DNA of 45,805 bases from a virus (Duplodnaviria; Caudoviricetes), in IMG/VR virus record IMGVR_UViG_3300017761_001556, positions 1 to 45,805 of that record; one strand, given 5' to 3'. Positions 1,551 through 39,941 of this stretch are shown piece after piece; the first letter of the stretch is position 1; each line of letters opens with the position of its first letter. The position numbers and the translations under genes are program-made. The notes beneath the pieces are model-generated. The model searched no databases. It saw only the letters and a list, made by a program, of their open reading frames with translations, and was not told the origin of the DNA.

Positions 1551-1943
1551 TTATGCTCGTGAAATACCGCGCGGGTCTTGGACAACAGCCTCTACTGAGT
1601 CATCATTAATAAGACGGAATTCCTTACCATGAATCTTCAAACGAGTGCCGCTGTTCGGACGCGCGAGAATAAAATCGCCTTCTTTGCACCAAGGGCCAGT
1701 TTTAAATCTGTCGCCTTTATATGCCTCAGGACCTAATTTCACGACAAAAAAGACCGTGCTAAGGACTTCCTCGTAGTGCATTGTTGTACCGGCTTTTGCT
1801 AGACCGCTGTCGTACTTGTCATCAATTTCCGGTATGGTTACTAGTATGTGGTAGCCAGAAGGTTGTGGCAGTTGTTTTGCTTTATCTTCGGCATCTTGCG
1901 GAACTTCACCGCTTTCTGTAGCGATTACTAGTTCAGTCATCAT
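1551..1943 (-). CDS. groES: phage-encoded GroES-like co-chaperonin (Cpn10)
   Basis: PSGYHILV...VVKLGPEAY...KEGDFIL...GKEFRLINDDSVEAVV matches the Cpn10 pattern. Confidence 0.85.
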   Translation of the reverse strand: MMTELVIATESGEVPQDAEDKAKQLPQPSGYHILVTIPEIDDKYDSGLAKAGTTMHYEEVLSTVFFVVKLGPEAYKGDRFKTGPWCKEGDFILARPNSGTRLKIHGKEFRLINDDSVEAVVQDPRGISRA

Positions 1944-12341: not shown

Positions 12342-13442
12342 ATGGCAAAAGTAGACTTCCGTAAGACAGTAACAATCAATCAACTAGCTAACTTGATACC
12401 GACAATATCAGCAACGATTGAGGGAGAAGACTCACACGTCACACCGATCATACTTAGTGAACCGGGTTGCGGCAAGACGTCGATCTTAAAATTGCTTGAG
12501 CAAAAACTTGGCAACAAGTACGACTACATCTACGTTGACTGTCCGTCAAAAGATTTACTAGACATCGCAGCAACAATACCGAATCACGGGGAGAAGTCAC
12601 TCGATCAATACGTAGGGTCTTTATTCAAGTTGGATAACAGCAAGCCAAAGGTCATCATGCTTGACGAGATATTCAAAGTTCCTAAGTTGATGGGCGTGAT
12701 CTGGACTAAGCTAATGCTAGAGCGAACAGTAGGGGACAAAGCGCTACCGCTTGGGTCTATCGTGTTTGGTACATCTAACAACGGAAGCGATGGTGTTGGC
12801 GACTACGTTGAGGCACACAAAGGCAATCGTGTTTGCTTCTATCACATGGAGAAACCCAACGCTAAGTCATACAACCTGTGGGCGGGTGAGAATGGTATCA
12901 GTACAATCATTCGTTCATTCGTTGCAATGAATCCTCGGGTGCTTCACTCATACCTTGACGGTGGGCAAGAAGATAATCCGTTCATATTCAACCCGACCAA
13001 GCCATCACAAAGCCTGTCGTTTATTTCACCACGTTCGCTCACTAAGTGCAATCGGATCGTCATGAACAAAGATAGTTTTAGTAGAGACGAGATCGAAGCA
13101 ACGCTCGCTGGAACTATTGGTTCGTCAGGAGCCGAACAGTTATGTACGTTCATTGACATGAACAGTCAGGTGTTAATGACTAGTGAGATCATCGCCAACC
13201 CAGAAGGCGTTGCGGTTCCGACAGATGTTGCTGCGCTGTGCATGGTGATGTTCAATGCGATTGACGACATCGTAACGCAAGATGATCTGTCGTCATTTAT
13301 GAAGTTCATTAAACGTGTCAAGCACACCGAGATTCAAAACATATTCTTTACTATGTTGATGGGTACTAAACGCACCGTAAGCCTTGCGAAAAACAATGCT
13401 GAGGTCAGCGAGTGGTGCAAAGATAACTACAAACTACTGTAA
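12342..13442 (+). CDS. MoxR/CobS-like AAA+ ATPase
   Basis: Walker A SEPGCGKTS, Walker B IMLDE, sensor GTSNN, NR arginine finger, SPRS sensor 2. Confidence 0.85.
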   Translation: MAKVDFRKTVTINQLANLIPTISATIEGEDSHVTPIILSEPGCGKTSILKLLEQKLGNKYDYIYVDCPSKDLLDIAATIPNHGEKSLDQYVGSLFKLDNSKPKVIMLDEIFKVPKLMGVIWTKLMLERTVGDKALPLGSIVFGTSNNGSDGVGDYVEAHKGNRVCFYHMEKPNAKSYNLWAGENGISTIIRSFVAMNPRVLHSYLDGGQEDNPFIFNPTKPSQSLSFISPRSLTKCNRIVMNKDSFSRDEIEATLAGTIGSSGAEQLCTFIDMNSQVLMTSEIIANPEGVAVPTDVAALCMVMFNAIDDIVTQDDLSSFMKFIKRVKHTEIQNIFFTMLMGTKRTVSLAKNNAEVSEWCKDNYKLL

Positions 13443-13459
13443 TAAGAAAGGGTTAGATC

Positions 13460-14662
13460 ATGGCATATCTTACAGACGAAGAAAGACTGAAGAAGAATCA
13501 CATTGTGTTAATGCGACATCCTGAGACTGCGTTGTACTCGGGCATCATTATGATGGGAGATAGTGAGGTAAGTGATGAATCTTTTACGGCGTACACCGAT
13601 GGAGTCAACAAGAAATATTCTCGCTCATTCATGCAAAAGCTCAAAGATGTTGAGTTGCGAGGTCTTATCTTACATGAGAATTTACATGTCACACTCATGC
13701 ACATACCGAGACACACCGACTTGATGAAAGAGAATCATACCCTAGCCAACATTGCTATGGACTTGGTTGTCAACGACATCATTATGAATCTGTCCGATAA
13801 GCAGTTGGCTTCATTACCTGAGGGCGCTGTGTATGACGAGAAGTTCCACGGTTGGTCTGTACGTGAGATTTACAACCATTTGAAGAAGGAAAATCCTAAG
13901 TGCAATCCACGGGCAGGTAGCGGTTCGGGGACAACCGAAATAGTAATTAACGGTGTCAAGCGCGAAGTGACAGGCGATGAGCATGACATGGGCAAGACAC
14001 CTTCTACTCCAGAGGAAGGTGAGAAGTTGGAGAAGGCTATCAACCAAGCCATACGTGAGGGCGGTATGTTGGCGGGTAGGCTTGGCACTAAGGTTCCTCG
14101 TCAGGTAGAACAATCGTTGGACAAACCACTACGTTGGGAGGATGTGTTACGAGAGTTTTGGACGAGTTCGGTACGCGGTAAGGACGAGTACACATGGCGT
14201 AGGTTTAACCGAGCGATGCTAGCCAATGACATCCTTGCACCGAGTACAGAGAATGAAACATTGACAGAGGTAATCATATCCATTGATACGTCAGGCTCGA
14301 TAAATCAAAAGATGATTGCCAAGTTCGCAGTTCAGGTGCAAGCGATTTGCGATTCGTGTACGCCCGAAACGGTAAGGATTCTATGGTGGGATACAGAGGT
14401 ACATGGTGAGCAGGTGTTTGCAGGTGACTCGCCCAACATCAAAGATATTCTTAAACCAATAGGCGGCGGCGGTACGCTGGTATCTTGTGTAGCGCAATAC
14501 ATCCTTGAGAAGAGATACAAGCCAGACTGTGTTGTAGTGTTTACTGATGGCTATGTTGAAGATAATGTTAAGTGGAATATATCCGCCGATACATTGTGGT
14601 TAGTGACGGAGAACGAGCGTTGGTCTCCACCGAAGGGCAAGAAAGTAATTGTTAATAACTAA
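13460..14662 (+). CDS. DUF2201-type metallopeptidase-VWA protein
   Basis: TAYTDG, HENLH (HExxH), ANIAMDLVVN; C-terminal MIDAS DTSGS...GGGGT...FTDG. Confidence 0.85.
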   Translation: MAYLTDEERLKKNHIVLMRHPETALYSGIIMMGDSEVSDESFTAYTDGVNKKYSRSFMQKLKDVELRGLILHENLHVTLMHIPRHTDLMKENHTLANIAMDLVVNDIIMNLSDKQLASLPEGAVYDEKFHGWSVREIYNHLKKENPKCNPRAGSGSGTTEIVINGVKREVTGDEHDMGKTPSTPEEGEKLEKAINQAIREGGMLAGRLGTKVPRQVEQSLDKPLRWEDVLREFWTSSVRGKDEYTWRRFNRAMLANDILAPSTENETLTEVIISIDTSGSINQKMIAKFAVQVQAICDSCTPETVRILWWDTEVHGEQVFAGDSPNIKDILKPIGGGGTLVSCVAQYILEKRYKPDCVVVFTDGYVEDNVKWNISADTLWLVTENERWSPPKGKKVIVNN

Positions 14663-34821: not shown

Positions 34822-37194
34822 TTATTGAACAGGTACTAAACCTTTGCCCGGTACATAATTAAATGTACCTCCTCCACTAGCCGGAGCCGCTGCATCTCCC
34901 CCAATATCGGCAGGGACAGGTAGATTACTGCGGCGATAAGCTTCTTTTGCAGTTTCCCGAATATTTCTTTCTTCTTGCTTTAACCTGTCGTAGTCTGCTT
35001 TAAGCGGGCCTTTATCAAATTTTTCTGGGTTTATATTTCTAGCTGTTTCATACCCAGAAAGTTTTTTACCATCGTCACTTTTCTTCCAATCTTTATACAT
35101 ATTATAAGCAGCGGTGGTCTCTTTATTCGCTAAAGCATCTTCTTTATTAGCACCAGAAGCGCGCTCTCGCGCAGCGGCAATCTGTCCTCGGTTTTGAAGC
35201 TCTTGTTCTTTAAGCCTATATTTACCCTGCATTTCAGCCTTAGCGCCTTCAGTTACAGCACCAAGTTCAGCTTCACGTTGACGTTGACGCAACGTAGCTA
35301 ATTTATCGTTTAGCCCATCTACACGTTTCCAAGCATCGGCTTTAGCTGATTCAGCTTTATCCATACGTCCGATGCTAACCAAATACTCAGCGTGGTCAAT
35401 ATCATAGATGGCTTTGTTCAACTCGTTTATAGCTTTCTTACGAGCCTTAGTATCTTCCATCGTGTCGTTGATATAACCAGCCATAGCTTGCAGACCAACC
35501 TTTAGTAGGGGGCCGGGAGTAGAACCGAAGACCGCCCATGCTTGTGCACGGCGTAGATACTTTTGATCTTCCGCTTCACTAGCCATAGCGTCTAACTGCG
35601 TGGTGTATGTACGCTTAAGATTAGCCATGAAGTCAGTCTTAACACCAGCGGCTCTTTCTTTATCTTTTTGTTCTTGGATTAATTGAACGTCCGATTTCAT
35701 AATGCTTTTTAATGCTTCTTGGCGCGCTGCAAGAAGATCGTTTTGATACGGATCAGGTTTACGAGCATCTGCTATAGCAGCCGTTATGCGTCTTTGATAT
35801 GCATCAAAAAGCCCATCTTCCTGTGGCGCAGCGGCTTTAGTAGCAATACCTTCAGACTTAGGAGCTTTTTTAGGAACTTTACTAGTTGTATCAGTTGATT
35901 TGCCTTCGGCTAGGTCTTCCCTAATAGGGAACATACCTTTTGGTTTTTCATCTTTGAACGGGTTCTCTACTTCATCAATTGCTTTTTTACTTCCTTCGGC
36001 AAACGCAATGATGCCGCCCGAGGCCATACCACGAACTTCTTTACGACGCAGCTTTTCAGCCTCCATGACACCCATTGGATCGTCTTCTTGCCCTTCTAAC
36101 TGTGGGTCGGAAAGCTTTTTAGCCATACCAGCTAACTTGTATGGGTTAGTTATACCGCCGCTCGCCATCTTAATGATGCCGCCTTCTTTCTTTTGCTGCC
36201 CCATGTTCTGAAGCATCCCCGCTGCACCTAATATTGACTGCAAATTAGACGGTTGCGCTTGGTACATACTTGTGTTTACAGACTGCATAGGCAAGCCACG
36301 GGTCATAGCATTTAAAATGCCCAACTGCATGAACGGGTATTGCTGTGTTGTAGCGTAGTCTTGGATGATCTGGTTTAAGCGAGATTGTTCGTACTCTTGC
36401 TGTTGTTTACCTATAGCAGCTTGTTGTCCAAGCAATCCCATCTCTTGACCGTACTGCTGTTGACCCATTTCTCCTAGTGTTCTAGCGCCTTGAAGTGCTT
36501 GACCTTGACCTTGCAAATCAAGATTGGCACCGAACTGTTGCGCTTGCTGTGCGGCTTGGAATGCGTTCTGCATCCCTGTGCCATATATTTGGCTTTGTAA
36601 CTGTCCAAGATTACGTTGGCGTTCGCTTTCTAACGCAAAACGTCCGCTACCGCCAAACGCTCCGGCTTTAATAGCGTCTGCTTGGTTTTTTAATCCTGTA
36701 ATACCAGATTGGCGGCGGGCTTCTTCCATTTGCGGATTAAGCGCACCTTGAATGTACGGCGACATGTAGGCTTGGGTAGCCATAGGGTTGGTCGCCATGT
36801 TCTGATAATTCTGCCCAGCCATCATGGAGTTAAGACCAGCGTATCCAGCCATTTCAGACGCTTGCCCAGTTTGCCCCGGTAGTTGATAGTTCTGAATACC
36901 ACGCATAGACTGCTCTTGCATTGGGGTAAAGCCCGCTACAGACTCACCTGTACCACCGCGTTTTTTGTCGTATTCAGAATAAGATTGAAACGGTTTAAAC
37001 CCTGTAGGTTTGCCAGAAGCGTCTGTTGTATAGATTTGCTTCTCAGTAGCCCCCATCATTGTTTCTACATAGGGGCGTAGATACGCGGGTATGTTTGTCT
37101 GATAGGACGTGGTTTGTGAAGGGCCACCGCCGCCCATGTTATAGGTGCGACGTCCGTCGGCAGCATAACCGTTAAATTTATTGCGGATAATCAT
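34822..37194 (-). CDS. internal virion / ejection protein B with 19-aa leader then MGGGG
   Basis: 790 aa, Gln/Ala/Gly-rich N-terminal half, MASGG repeats, coiled-coil C-terminal half; P22 gp7/gp20-like position. Confidence 0.7.
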   Translation of the reverse strand: MIIRNKFNGYAADGRRTYNMGGGGPSQTTSYQTNIPAYLRPYVETMMGATEKQIYTTDASGKPTGFKPFQSYSEYDKKRGGTGESVAGFTPMQEQSMRGIQNYQLPGQTGQASEMAGYAGLNSMMAGQNYQNMATNPMATQAYMSPYIQGALNPQMEEARRQSGITGLKNQADAIKAGAFGGSGRFALESERQRNLGQLQSQIYGTGMQNAFQAAQQAQQFGANLDLQGQGQALQGARTLGEMGQQQYGQEMGLLGQQAAIGKQQQEYEQSRLNQIIQDYATTQQYPFMQLGILNAMTRGLPMQSVNTSMYQAQPSNLQSILGAAGMLQNMGQQKKEGGIIKMASGGITNPYKLAGMAKKLSDPQLEGQEDDPMGVMEAEKLRRKEVRGMASGGIIAFAEGSKKAIDEVENPFKDEKPKGMFPIREDLAEGKSTDTTSKVPKKAPKSEGIATKAAAPQEDGLFDAYQRRITAAIADARKPDPYQNDLLAARQEALKSIMKSDVQLIQEQKDKERAAGVKTDFMANLKRTYTTQLDAMASEAEDQKYLRRAQAWAVFGSTPGPLLKVGLQAMAGYINDTMEDTKARKKAINELNKAIYDIDHAEYLVSIGRMDKAESAKADAWKRVDGLNDKLATLRQRQREAELGAVTEGAKAEMQGKYRLKEQELQNRGQIAAARERASGANKEDALANKETTAAYNMYKDWKKSDDGKKLSGYETARNINPEKFDKGPLKADYDRLKQEERNIRETAKEAYRRSNLPVPADIGGDAAAPASGGGTFNYVPGKGLVPVQ

Positions 37195-37598
37195 AGCCCG
37201 ATCCTCATAACTTGATGGGTATTAGTCATACCCATTTTTTCATACATTTGAACTAAAGTTCCTTTAGCCCAGCATTGTGCGGTTGTCGCGCCCATTAAGC
37301 GCATCCAATTTTTAGCTTCATCAAACACATGTGTACGCACGATCCCTTTACCACCCATTAAGTTCACATGCGCTACGCGCTGACGTGGGTAATCAATAAT
37401 GCCTACAGTTACAGCACCTGTAATGCCCTCGTCCGGTTCATCCCAAACCAACAAGTAAGTACGCCCAGTGCGTACTGAGTATTCAACTTGTTCTATAGTT
37501 ATTTCGTTTGGATCAAGATCAATTGCTCTTTGAAGCATAGGAGCGACAATGCCCCAGACTTGGGGCAGTTGCGCAGGAGTAATTTGATATAGAGCCAT
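37191..37598 (-). CDS. GNAT-fold putative acyltransferase 2
   Basis: 135 aa alpha/beta; GAVTVGIIDYP, HVNLMGGKG, and QMYEKMGM resembling the GNAT YxxxGF motif. Confidence 0.55.
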   Translation of the reverse strand: MALYQITPAQLPQVWGIVAPMLQRAIDLDPNEITIEQVEYSVRTGRTYLLVWDEPDEGITGAVTVGIIDYPRQRVAHVNLMGGKGIVRTHVFDEAKNWMRLMGATTAQCWAKGTLVQMYEKMGMTNTHQVMRIGL

Positions 37599-37600
37599 CT

Positions 37601-39235
37601 TTACGCAGGTAAGTGTTTTTTAGCTTTAGAGTCTACAGCTACCTTGTTCTTACCTACAGACTTGCGACGGCCTTTTTGTATGCGCTCCATCATGGCATAG
37701 AGTTGTCTTGCTCCAGCTTCTGTTGATCCATTTCCCAACTCTGATACGATACGTGCAGGCACCACGAACTCACCATCAGCAAGACGAGCGGGCTGATTAC
37801 GCCCAATAACAGCAGGAATAGAATCAGATACGCCATCGCCCGGCCCTTTCAATAAACGCCCGCCAGAAGCATAATCAGAATACCCCCCTAAACCGCGCAT
37901 AATCCCACCACGTGCAGCAACGATTTCTGCCTCTGGGTCACCCATCACGTCTACGCTAGTCTTGGCAGGCGCAACAACTGGTATCTTGTATTTCTTACCT
38001 AATGCTTGAAGGTCTTTTATTGCGGTCTCGTATGGTGAAGAAGTTAATTGTGTACGTGTACGATCTCTAGTTGATCTGGCAGCAGCAGCGCCTTTTGACT
38101 GCATAGACTCATACATAGATTCAGCTTGTTCTTTGCGTTCTTTTTCTTCTTTCTTTAATTGTTCTAAATACGGATTACCGCCCTTAGAGAACTTTTGTTC
38201 GCCTGTATAAGGGTCAACATTATTGCCAACACCTTGATTAACCACGTCCGCGTTTACAGGACGCTGCGTCATTGGATTGTTGTACATAGGGGTGTTTAGC
38301 CCCGCTTGAGGATACATAGTATTGCCGCTAGTTGAATTAATAGCCGACATAGTTTCTACAGGGCCGCCAACAGCTAAATAAGAAGTAGGTTGATATATAG
38401 GGTTGTAAACGGCTGTTGAAGGCGATGATGCACTAAAACCAGACATATCTTTGCGCTTATATTTTTCTTCTTCAGGCTTGTCTTGGAAATATTTTTGCGC
38501 AGCACTAATGCCTACAGATGTTAAAAGAGGATTCTTTTGCGCAAAATTCATCGCTGTATCAAAGCCAGACGACAGGGCGTCATACCCAGTTTTAGCCGCG
38601 TCCATAATGCCGTTCGCACCGCCGGTTGATGCAGGGGAAGTTACAGCAGGTGTAGAAGCGTTAGGAGGCACGCCACTCCAAGGGCTAGGCGCTTCAGGTA
38701 TTGGTTGCTCACCAAACGGAGTATGTACAGTTGTTGGCGCAGGTGTAGTAGACGGTGTAACAGGCGGTGTAACAGGCGGTGTAACAGGCGCACCGGGCGT
38801 AAAGGCAGTAGCTTCTGGAACAACCCCCGGACTAGCCGTACTTACTTGCCCAAGAGTTTGCGCAGCGGTAACGTCCGCAGCGGCAGGGGCAGCGGATTGC
38901 ATAATGCCTTGCGCAGCGACCGCTTCAGGAGCAAGTGCTGTAGGAGCAAGTGCTGTAGTAGTGCCAGCCATAGTGCCAGTACCAAGCCCAGCGCCAGCGC
39001 CAAGACCAAGCCCCGCGCCCCCAGCGGCAGCGGCAGTACCAGCGGCACCAAGAGCGGCGCCTGTACCAGCGGCAGCGCCAGCAGTACCAAGAGCGGCGGC
39101 TGTACCAAGAGTAGTACCAGCGGCAGCGGCACCAAGCCCACCTGCTTGTGTAGCCAAAGCAGCAAGCGTAACAGGGTCGTTGTACAAGCGGATATTGTCC
39201 GCACTGTAGCCATTAAATTTATTTGGTATTCTCAT
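37601..39235 (-). CDS. internal virion / ejection protein A with 19-aa leader, Gly/Ala hydrophobic core and C-terminal GPGDGVSDSIPA...GEFVV domain
   Basis: 544 aa; DPVTLAALA followed by a Gly/Ala zipper; PVTP repeats; C-terminal motif also seen in tape-measure C-termini. Confidence 0.7.
   Translation of the reverse strand: MRIPNKFNGYSADNIRLYNDPVTLAALATQAGGLGAAAAGTTLGTAAALGTAGAAAGTGAALGAAGTAAAAGGAGLGLGAGAGLGTGTMAGTTTALAPTALAPEAVAAQGIMQSAAPAAADVTAAQTLGQVSTASPGVVPEATAFTPGAPVTPPVTPPVTPSTTPAPTTVHTPFGEQPIPEAPSPWSGVPPNASTPAVTSPASTGGANGIMDAAKTGYDALSSGFDTAMNFAQKNPLLTSVGISAAQKYFQDKPEEEKYKRKDMSGFSASSPSTAVYNPIYQPTSYLAVGGPVETMSAINSTSGNTMYPQAGLNTPMYNNPMTQRPVNADVVNQGVGNNVDPYTGEQKFSKGGNPYLEQLKKEEKERKEQAESMYESMQSKGAAAARSTRDRTRTQLTSSPYETAIKDLQALGKKYKIPVVAPAKTSVDVMGDPEAEIVAARGGIMRGLGGYSDYASGGRLLKGPGDGVSDSIPAVIGRNQPARLADGEFVVPARIVSELGNGSTEAGARQLYAMMERIQKGRRKSVGKNKVAVDSKAKKHLPA
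38753..38790 (-). repeat. 12-bp tandem repeat x3 (PVTP linker)
   Basis: (CGGTGTAACAGG)3. Confidence 0.9.
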
Positions 39236-39609
39236 ACGTAATTACTCCTGTCGCAACGTAGTAGTATTGTACCGTTTTGTGCGCCAAATTTAACAAATCC
39301 TAGTCGTTCACAGAACCGCAACCCAGCGAGGTTATCTTCTCTTACTTGGGTTACTGCCCAGCCATATTTATCTACTACGCCACCAAGAATAGCCCGAATA
39401 TATGCCCGAATAGACCTTTTTGGCCTAACCCCGTACCCTACGTGAATCTCATTGCCTTTTAACAATACACCACCGATTACTTGCCCATCTTCGGTAAGCG
39501 GCACCACATCCCAATCTTTTAATGCTTCCAGATACTCAACCATACCAACGGTCAAGCGGTGCTTTACAGACTCATACACCATAATAAGAGCACGGTCTTC
39601 AGGAGTCAT
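39232..39609 (-). CDS. GNAT-fold putative acyltransferase 1 (P22 gp14-like position)
   Basis: NEIH, and VREDNLAGLRFCERLGF matching the GNAT NxxAxxFYxxLGF motif; start MTPEDR coupled via TAATG (track start 39624). Confidence 0.7.
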   Translation of the reverse strand: MTPEDRALIMVYESVKHRLTVGMVEYLEALKDWDVVPLTEDGQVIGGVLLKGNEIHVGYGVRPKRSIRAYIRAILGGVVDKYGWAVTQVREDNLAGLRFCERLGFVKFGAQNGTILLRCDRSNYV

Positions 39610-39941
39610 TACCCTACTTTCCAATTAGTACCGTCTGAATACACGGGCACTTTTGTAGAACCGCCAGCAGCCACTGTCGAGCCGAATGTTGAAACAGATG
39701 AATTTGTGACAAACGCCCTTGCACCTACTCCGGCATTTGAAGCGTCGGGTAAATCCGCTACTTCATAAACGCCGCCTAAAGTCAACTGATTCACTAGTGA
39801 ATCAAGCTGGTTAAAGTACAAACGTAAAACATTAGCAACGTCGTCTTGGTGTTTTTGTTGGTACTCGGTAGGAGCTAACGGCAACGTAGGCGACTTTACC
39901 CGCGTTAACGTCGTTTTACTAACTAAAACAACACTGGTCAT
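39609..39941 (-). CDS. small tail protein (tail needle/plug position)
   Basis: APTEY...LRLYFNQLD helix plus a C-terminal VPVYSDGTNW beta knob; between the gp10-like and gp14-like genes. Confidence 0.55.
   Translation of the reverse strand: MTSVVLVSKTTLTRVKSPTLPLAPTEYQQKHQDDVANVLRLYFNQLDSLVNQLTLGGVYEVADLPDASNAGVGARAFVTNSSVSTFGSTVAAGGSTKVPVYSDGTNWKVG

Follow-up and report, generated by a model that had tools for sequence, protein, structure and literature searches.

The 45,805-nt virus record IMGVR_UViG_3300017761_001556 of IMG/VR (Duplodnaviria; Caudoviricetes), which was analyzed in its entirety and is referred to here as the window, is 71% complete and, in Pfam and PHROG scans, encodes a terminase, a portal protein, a DNA polymerase A, a lysozyme, and tail proteins. 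Its minus strand carries two successive gene pairs, each consisting of a small gene for a predicted GCN5-related N-acetyltransferase (GNAT), GNAT1 or GNAT2, and a gene for a large protein, protein A or protein B (table 1). The open reading frames (ORFs) confirmed the order GNAT1-A-GNAT2-B described in an earlier note on this DNA as well as both couplings, in which the stop codons of GNAT1 and GNAT2 each overlap the next start codon as ATGA. We identify the locus as an ejection operon of the podovirus type, where the helper slot known for internal virion protein (IVP)-A (T7 gp13 and P22 gp14; Hardies et al. 2016) is present twice. Proteins A and B begin with related leaders, and sequence comparisons of relatives indicate that the small slot gene directly upstream of the partner protein, referred to as the helper whether it encodes a GNAT or another protein, tracks the residues behind the leader and not the leader, which is a swappable module.

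Table 1. Positions of the features discussed, counted from the first letter of the window
Feature	Position	Strand	Remark
GNAT1	39232-39609	-	125 aa from ATG at 39609; IVP-A-like (T7 gp13/P22 gp14 slot)
Protein A	37601-39235	-	544 aa; assigned from its position only as a putative internal/ejection protein
GNAT2	37191-37598	-	135 aa; tied in relatives to Gly-run N-termini
Protein B	34822-37194	-	790 aa; DNA-ejection-type, phrog_4287 match
AGGAG Shine-Dalgarno-like site for protein A	39245-39249	-	within 3' end of GNAT1
GAGGA Shine-Dalgarno-like site for protein B	37202-37206	-	within 3' end of GNAT2
NKFNGY-type leader of protein A, 19 aa	39179-39235	-	from ORF, motif, and alignment analysis
NKFNGY-type leader of protein B, 19 aa	37138-37194	-	relatives have it exchanged as one block
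DPVT, predicted mature N-terminus of A	39167-39178	-	no variation at D1-P2 among 25 aligned GNAT1 partners
MGGGG, predicted mature N-terminus of B	37123-37137	-	Gly run behind leader in 37/38 GNAT2-type cases (other one truncated)
LPD38 protein, 2,362 aa	27725-34813	-	likely large third ejection protein; follows B; no small gene in front
Virion structural protein, 741 aa	39944-42169	-	phrog_3287, E 1e-60
110-aa gene upstream of GNAT1	39609-39941	-	TAATG overlap with GNAT1
C-terminal domain of protein A	37601-37900		GPGDGxSDSIPA..LADGEFV; no Pfam match
AAA ATPase beside DUF2201 putative metallopeptidase/VWA gene	12342-14662		early region
GroES-like co-chaperonin gene	1551-1943		adjoins portal gene

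The leaders of A and B align without gaps and are identical at 13 of 19 positions. They form the only significant alignment between the two proteins (E 3.7e-4; all remaining segments E at least 0.45), in agreement with the claim that similarity ends sharply after YN. The codons for I3, N8, G9, Y10, A12, and Y18 differ synonymously, and the proportions of synonymous (pS) and nonsynonymous (pN) differences between the two copies in the window are 0.85 and 0.27, which supports conservation of the peptide; because synonymous sites are near saturation, the pair is not a recent duplication. We relied on this pair alone and set aside pN/pS over 78 leader copies, because that value depends in part on the pattern by which the copies were found. 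In the window, the NKFNGY codon pattern has exactly two occurrences (0.20 expected by chance at two or fewer mismatches), and a motif scan of the window did not find it in the 2,362-aa third protein. Shine-Dalgarno-like sites precede M1 of both A and B and none precedes M20 of B, which disfavours a translation start at that residue. Carrying the leader on both proteins is the minority state, as only 6 of the 15 genomes with the leader on A also have it on B and the other 9 have a B without it. The leader is nevertheless found on B more often in genomes with the leader on A than otherwise (6/15 vs. 19/116; Fisher p 0.04, uncorrected, the window genome included). Rare variants, namely IGTK (L028/L098, L numbers denoting relatives) and MIIRNKF (L128), recur in the A and B leaders of the same genome, a hint that the genes copied from one another within a lineage.

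To place the small proteins, we compared their AlphaFold2 models (pLDDT 91.6 for GNAT1 and 91.9 for GNAT2) with known structures using VIA-align. The best match of GNAT1 was SpNatD (Z 12.0, root-mean-square deviation 2.6 Å over 125 residues) and that of GNAT2 was SSAT2 (Z 12.9, 2.8 Å over 127 residues), and the top-50 list of each consisted of GNAT-fold entries; thus, both small genes, as previously proposed, have the GNAT alpha/beta fold in their models. N-terminal acetyltransferases top the GNAT1 list, but rows less than 1 Z apart count as ties and this order carries no weight here. Neither protein matched a Pfam or PHROG model, PF11090 and PF11039 both remaining below the cut-off, and PF11090 was matched weakly by 4 of 26 GNAT1 family members (best E 0.0043). 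The nearest named Atlas cluster to GNAT1 is DUF2824 (0.93; a lead only), and in the one nearest to GNAT2 (0.93) Acetyltransf_1 is found on 10% of the members. GNAT1 relatives lean weakly toward T7 gp13 and DUF2824. Profile comparisons gave 5.6% for GNAT1 against GNAT2 and 3.1% for GNAT1 against a class of short GNAT-like slot proteins described later, values that are uninformative because the two window GNATs share a fold by structure.

The leader was followed by a motif scan that was independent of the enzymes and gave 127 matches in 115 stretches, corresponding to 97 distinct N-termini. The gene upstream encodes GNAT1 in 31, a GNAT2-type protein in 38, and a protein with a DDxxD motif in 13 cases, so that a slot gene lies directly upstream in 82 of 97 and is of GNAT type in 69 of these. 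The remaining 15 have no recognised slot gene; 9 of them have a full flank and 6 a flank of at most 300 bases, one of which cannot be judged. These counts support the earlier view that each small gene forms a pair with the protein encoded after it, but the occurrence of one leader behind such different genes speaks against the proposal that it recruits a cognate GNAT. The residues behind the leader are distributed differently: Asp-Pro follows it directly in 31/31 cases with GNAT1 and in 0/66 of all others, and GG is found within four post-leader residues in 37 of 38 GNAT2-type cases. Gly occupies the first position in 27/37 GNAT2-type cases versus 0/13 cases with the DDxxD protein, where this residue is Cys (5), Phe (6), Ile (1), or Leu (1). 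Because the leader sits between the helper gene and the predicted mature end on the DNA, linkage alone would favour an association of the helper with the leader, which is the opposite of what is observed.

The reverse comparison holds the helper constant. Among the best 80 of 110 confirmed GNAT2 loci (GNAT2 identity 63–100%), the proteins behind GNAT2 carry one of several unrelated leaders or none and then nearly always a Gly run. Sorted into pattern-based classes, the 78 distinct GNAT2 partners over all loci have leaders of the NKFNGY (23), hydrophobic (17), YSRR (16), IPDLP (9), or KRKL (8) family or are leaderless (5); that a single GNAT2 clade precedes five leader families or none again speaks against recruitment by the leader. 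A GNAT2 tree of 83 rows, itself weakly resolved, shows 31 switches of leader family, and the family differs in 43 of 141 GNAT2 pairs of at least 88% identity. In DNA alignments, the exchanged segment starts at the ATGA and ends at the Gly codons, and the flanks on both sides are similar. All 44 counted GNAT1 partners carry a leader, of the NKFNGY type in 29 and of a GDP-containing type in 15, and DP was found by pattern in 44 of 46 partners, the other two being mis-started and showing RLYF-DPVT. The combination of GNAT1 and DP is maintained with leader types that are unrelated and on three protein bodies (A-type 21, short 6, others 14; n = 41). In the cultured Xanthomonas phage PBR31, a GNAT1 homolog (40% identity) precedes an annotated internal protein A that shares only NDPVT with protein A of the window; both the PBR31 protein and the one "other" body scanned in addition (L109) match phrog_598.

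The slot before A was surveyed in loci anchored on the A C-terminal domain (the best 80 of 585), which were pooled with other loci and comprise 127 distinct A proteins, five poorly parsed rows being excluded. With GNAT1 in the slot, A begins with leader and DP in 15/15 cases. A His-rich cupin (Cupin_2, E 5e-6) or an approximately 100-aa GNAT-like gene can take the place of GNAT1 (L008:2249-2563; L002:406-705), the latter named GNAT-like by eye and lacking a Pfam match, and the A proteins behind both are leaderless with a Met-Pro start (13/13 for the cupin, one start corrected; 20/22 for the short gene). With an empty slot, A has a 54-aa pro-domain in 57 cases and another start in 20. For the slot before B, a Gly/Cys-type start was found in 116 of 120 cases when it is filled and in 0 of 10 when it is empty. 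Leaderless partners start with Met and a small residue in 73/74 cases (the mis-started L246 was dropped), which is modest evidence because many bacterial proteins start in this way. Leaderless natural relatives of B start with MGGG or MSGG, and leaderless starts fall at or next to the junction of leader-bearing proteins, marked here by a slash: MGGGG and MSFGG compare with LYP/GGGG and YN/FGGG, and MGFLS compares with TGLPEA/GFLS. The 54-aa pro-domain (A N-termini of L020, L050, and L058; L283:6405-7313) ends in TINPxTGLPEA before GFL on helper-less A proteins, and in the cultured phage Venkman the GNAT2 partner has KGGGG behind a pro-domain of this type.

Altogether, the relatives contain at least eight helper classes that are matched to the post-leader residues of their partners, and two of these slot classes are bona fide members of Acetyltransf_1 in Pfam (E 9e-12 and 8e-9). 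The DDxxD protein, of 148–167 aa and with an invariant WDDLxD, is encoded before B either in place of the GNAT or together with it (L082:10252-10698; L158:6279-6779; L399:3992-4465). It has 1,647 homologs, belongs to phrog_21390 (unknown function), and is present in the cultured Achromobacter phage CF418P1. A PDB sequence search and Pfam gave no fold for it, the best 120 of the 1,647 homologs having no Pfam match, and it is prenyl-synthase-like by its motif only. Helper genes also occur in tandem before B, as three GNAT-like genes, two GNAT-like genes, or a GNAT and a DDxxD gene (L044:7169-8405; L021:8001-8827; L250, L346).

Protein A itself has no Pfam or PHROG family match and consists of a Gly/Ala-rich N-terminal region, a Pro/Thr linker, and a conserved C-terminal domain; the C-terminal 99 aa are very common in IMG/VR (585 stretches confirmed among 600 scanned) and the domain is estimated to occur in approximately 2,300 stretches. 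Residues 82–327 of protein B match phrog_4287, "DNA ejection protein" (E 9e-5). In L082, L087, and L097, a 320–336-aa protein that matches B's N-terminal half is followed by a separate gene of 560–600 aa and, given these split genes, B may be a fusion. Motifs of the form (M/Y/F/L)(A/S)xGG are scattered at residues 287, 349, and 455 of A and 343 and 390 of B, with none in the giant third protein. The order of the 741-aa protein, the 110-aa gene, and GNAT1 is kept in relatives. Farther away, the window encodes the GroES-like co-chaperonin and, in the early region, the ATPase and DUF2201 genes, which have no shown tie to the leaders.

The arrangement resembles known ejection operons. IVP-A is described as an acetyltransferase-family morphogenesis factor that is absent from the virion and encoded before IVP-B, its members including T7 gp13 and the product of the P22 gene before gene 7; in phiRIO-1 the slot is filled by an unrelated protein, gp39, and the 43 N-terminal residues of IVP-B were not sampled by mass spectrometry (Hardies et al. 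2016, PMC4819975). A cobavirus study draws the same link between a GNAT and gp13 (PMC6775973). As in T7 (gp13, PF11090, before gp14) and P22 (gene 14, PF11039, DUF2824, before gene 7), the window has a small acetyltransferase-fold gene directly before an ejection-protein gene and after the tail genes, which upholds the analogy with P22 genes 14 and 7; unlike in these phages, there are two helper–partner pairs and the helpers fall below the Pfam cut-offs. Helper classes matched to post-leader residues, as seen in the relatives here, are undescribed in the available portions of PMC4819975. Literature searches, whose coverage excluded most subscription papers, found neither acylated or prenylated ejection proteins nor swappable leaders, and no substrate or reaction for the IVP-A proteins T7 gp13 and P22 gp14. 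Likewise, nothing on modification is contained in the available portions of PMC9728967, PMC8954989, PMC6918029, PMC11440229, and PMC10975493, nor did a term search find any in 10.64898/2026.05.18.726046.

The closest parallel to the leader is P22 gp7, from which host OpdA removes 20 residues so that the mature protein starts with KGGKG (PMC8402733), a cleavage that occurs before assembly (PMC4992974). Like gp7, protein B has a leader of about 20 aa before the Gly-rich start of an ejection protein encoded beside a GNAT-fold gene; protein A has DPVT at the corresponding place. The gp7 leader is apparently dispensable, as is the leader here. Unlike the gp7 leader, the NKFNGY leader belongs to a group of several families that are interchangeable, and it stands on two proteins of the window. 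A 2026 in situ structure shows gp7 folding back as a hairpin, with residues 35–181 resolved in one map and residues 40–45 bonded to 155–165 (10.64898/2026.09.03.749273). We infer that the N-terminus of gp7 outside the map points toward the membrane, which would allow, and does not show, a lipid cap; the words "acyl," "lipid," and "gp14" are absent from the available text of that study.

Our favoured reading, to which we give about an even chance, is cleavage of the leader by a protease, followed by acylation of the newly exposed N-terminus by the respective GNAT. The ATGA overlap would ensure that enzyme and substrate are made together. The leader would be a generic pro-sequence drawn from a small pool and cut off before assembly by a protease, likely that of the host as in P22, and its removal would expose a defined alpha-amino residue. 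A leader would then always be present where methionine aminopeptidase could not expose the end (Asp), and ends within reach of that enzyme (Gly, Ser, Pro, Cys) could occur with or without one. GNAT1 would recognise and probably acylate the Asp-Pro end of A and GNAT2 the Met/Gly-Gly-Gly end of B, possibly with an acyl donor other than acetyl coenzyme A (CoA), and the cap may help loading, stability, or membrane entry. Because the leader swaps freely while the helper tracks the residues behind it, the enzymes likely act on the end exposed after cleavage. Acylation of the new N-terminus, as already proposed in the earlier note, stays plausible, with specificity apparently lying behind the leader, and the exposure of KGGKG on gp7 by OpdA before assembly is a precedent for this reading, as is the acetyltransferase-family membership of IVP-A. 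More tentatively, and with a chance well short of even, short-tailed phages may run a modular N-terminal tailoring code in which interchangeable pro-sequences expose a chosen first residue and a matched slot enzyme (one of the GNAT classes, the prenyl-synthase-like DDxxD protein, or the cupin) attaches a group, whether acyl, prenyl, or another, that aids entry into the host envelope; T7 gp13 and P22 gp14 would be members.

Several observations weigh against acylation of a cleaved end. Cleavage, binding, and acyl transfer are inferences for this phage. The canonical GNAT loop that binds the pyrophosphate of acetyl-CoA, R/Q-x-x-G-x-G/A, is conserved in neither GNAT family according to our alignments, the segment after the strand being VRPKRSIRAY in GNAT1 and MGGKGIV in GNAT2. 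The leader family tracks the GNAT2 tree beyond shuffled labels (31 changes vs. a mean of 48.7 and a minimum of 42), and the post-leader residues of the GNAT2 and DDxxD classes overlap (Leu, Met, Phe). The two most distant GNAT1 matches (33% identity, L123/L124), which were kept outside the counted GNAT1 partners, precede a leaderless MGIETA protein without DP. Fisher values ignore relatedness, and a tree-aware test gave few independent pairs on well-supported branches, four for GNAT1/DP and five for MP, all or nearly all concordant and not significant. In P22, deletion of the gp7 leader leaves approximately 60% of the burst, so that a processed N-terminus is not essential there (PMC8402733).

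In a rival account, the GNAT-fold helpers have no catalytic role and serve as chaperones or loading factors, which would bind the N-terminal segment of the mature ejection protein and pass this protein to the procapsid without any acylation. This account explains the match between helper and mature end equally well, accommodates the missing CoA loop and slots filled by folds as different as a GNAT, a cupin, and a DDxxD protein, and agrees with the description of IVP-A as a nonstructural assembly protein that an unrelated one can replace (PMC4819975). We nevertheless consider it doubtful, because the occupants have catalytic-looking invariant residues (E54/H56 in GNAT1, WDDLxD, and the His-rich motif of the cupin), two slot classes are genuine Acetyltransf_1 proteins, and the specificity is limited to the first residues.

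Alternatively, the helper gene and the N-terminal region might be a co-travelling recombination cassette, the GNAT acting elsewhere, on the host or a tail component, and the match being historical. Adjacent genes are co-inherited and the independent contrasts are few, but the leader between them is exchanged while the flanks stay matched, GNAT1 and DP are kept together at 40–50% GNAT identity on unrelated protein bodies, and an empty slot accompanies the loss of both leader and Gly run, which makes this account improbable. Slightly less credible still is that the leader is retained as a functional module for membrane or portal contact, with any acylation on internal residues: the module has no linked protease gene, the DUF2201 putative metallopeptidase being far off, and some leader families are strongly hydrophobic, yet leaderless variants found in nature start at the junction or beside it and P22 gp7 loses its equivalent segment.

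The proposals of the earlier note that the leader recruits its cognate GNAT, or that it is a shared capsid-targeting tag, are very unlikely and largely refuted by these comparisons: in their favour stand the conserved peptide, the prevalence of slot genes upstream, and the more frequent leader on B when A has one; against them stand the one leader with GNAT1, GNAT2-type, DDxxD, and helper-less genes, the near-identical GNAT2s with unrelated leaders or none, the mismatch in 9 of 15 genomes, the giant protein without the motif, and P22 gp7, which loses its leader before assembly, tolerates its deletion, and binds procapsids via residues 21–154 (PMC8402733). The known systems closest to these proposals differ from the locus. 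RiPP systems, including GNAT-acylated lipopeptides, rely on leader-directed modification by an enzyme and share with this locus a leader and an adjacent, translationally coupled modifying-enzyme gene. Unlike the short RiPP precursor with its peptide core, the proteins here have 544 and 790 aa (525 and 771 aa without the leader), and the enzyme tracks the post-leader residues, leader and enzyme class assorting freely; in this incomplete record, the scanned ORFs that adjoin the module included no dedicated leader peptidase or recognition element. The T4 capsid-targeting sequence and the propeptides of giant-phage ejection proteins are shared, removable N-terminal segments on internal head proteins. 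Unlike them, the leader is not on all internal proteins and most relatives show a mismatch; the available part of the genome showed no prohead protease.

The IVP-A/IVP-B arrangement is already known; what this analysis adds is the match between helper class and mature end, and the variant described here bears testable predictions on the old question of the role of IVP-A. The predictions are at the level of residues: GNAT1 goes with Asp-Pro, GNAT2 with Gly runs, the DDxxD protein with Cys, Phe, Ile, or Leu, and the cupin or short GNAT-like gene with Pro. Because the same helper–partner pairs occur in the cultured phages PBR31, Venkman, and CF418P1, they can be tested there. If the ends are not capped, the arrangement is still one of modular pro-sequences and not a RiPP-like system; if they are chemically capped, this would be an unrecognised, widespread maturation step of the machinery by which these phages inject their genomes.

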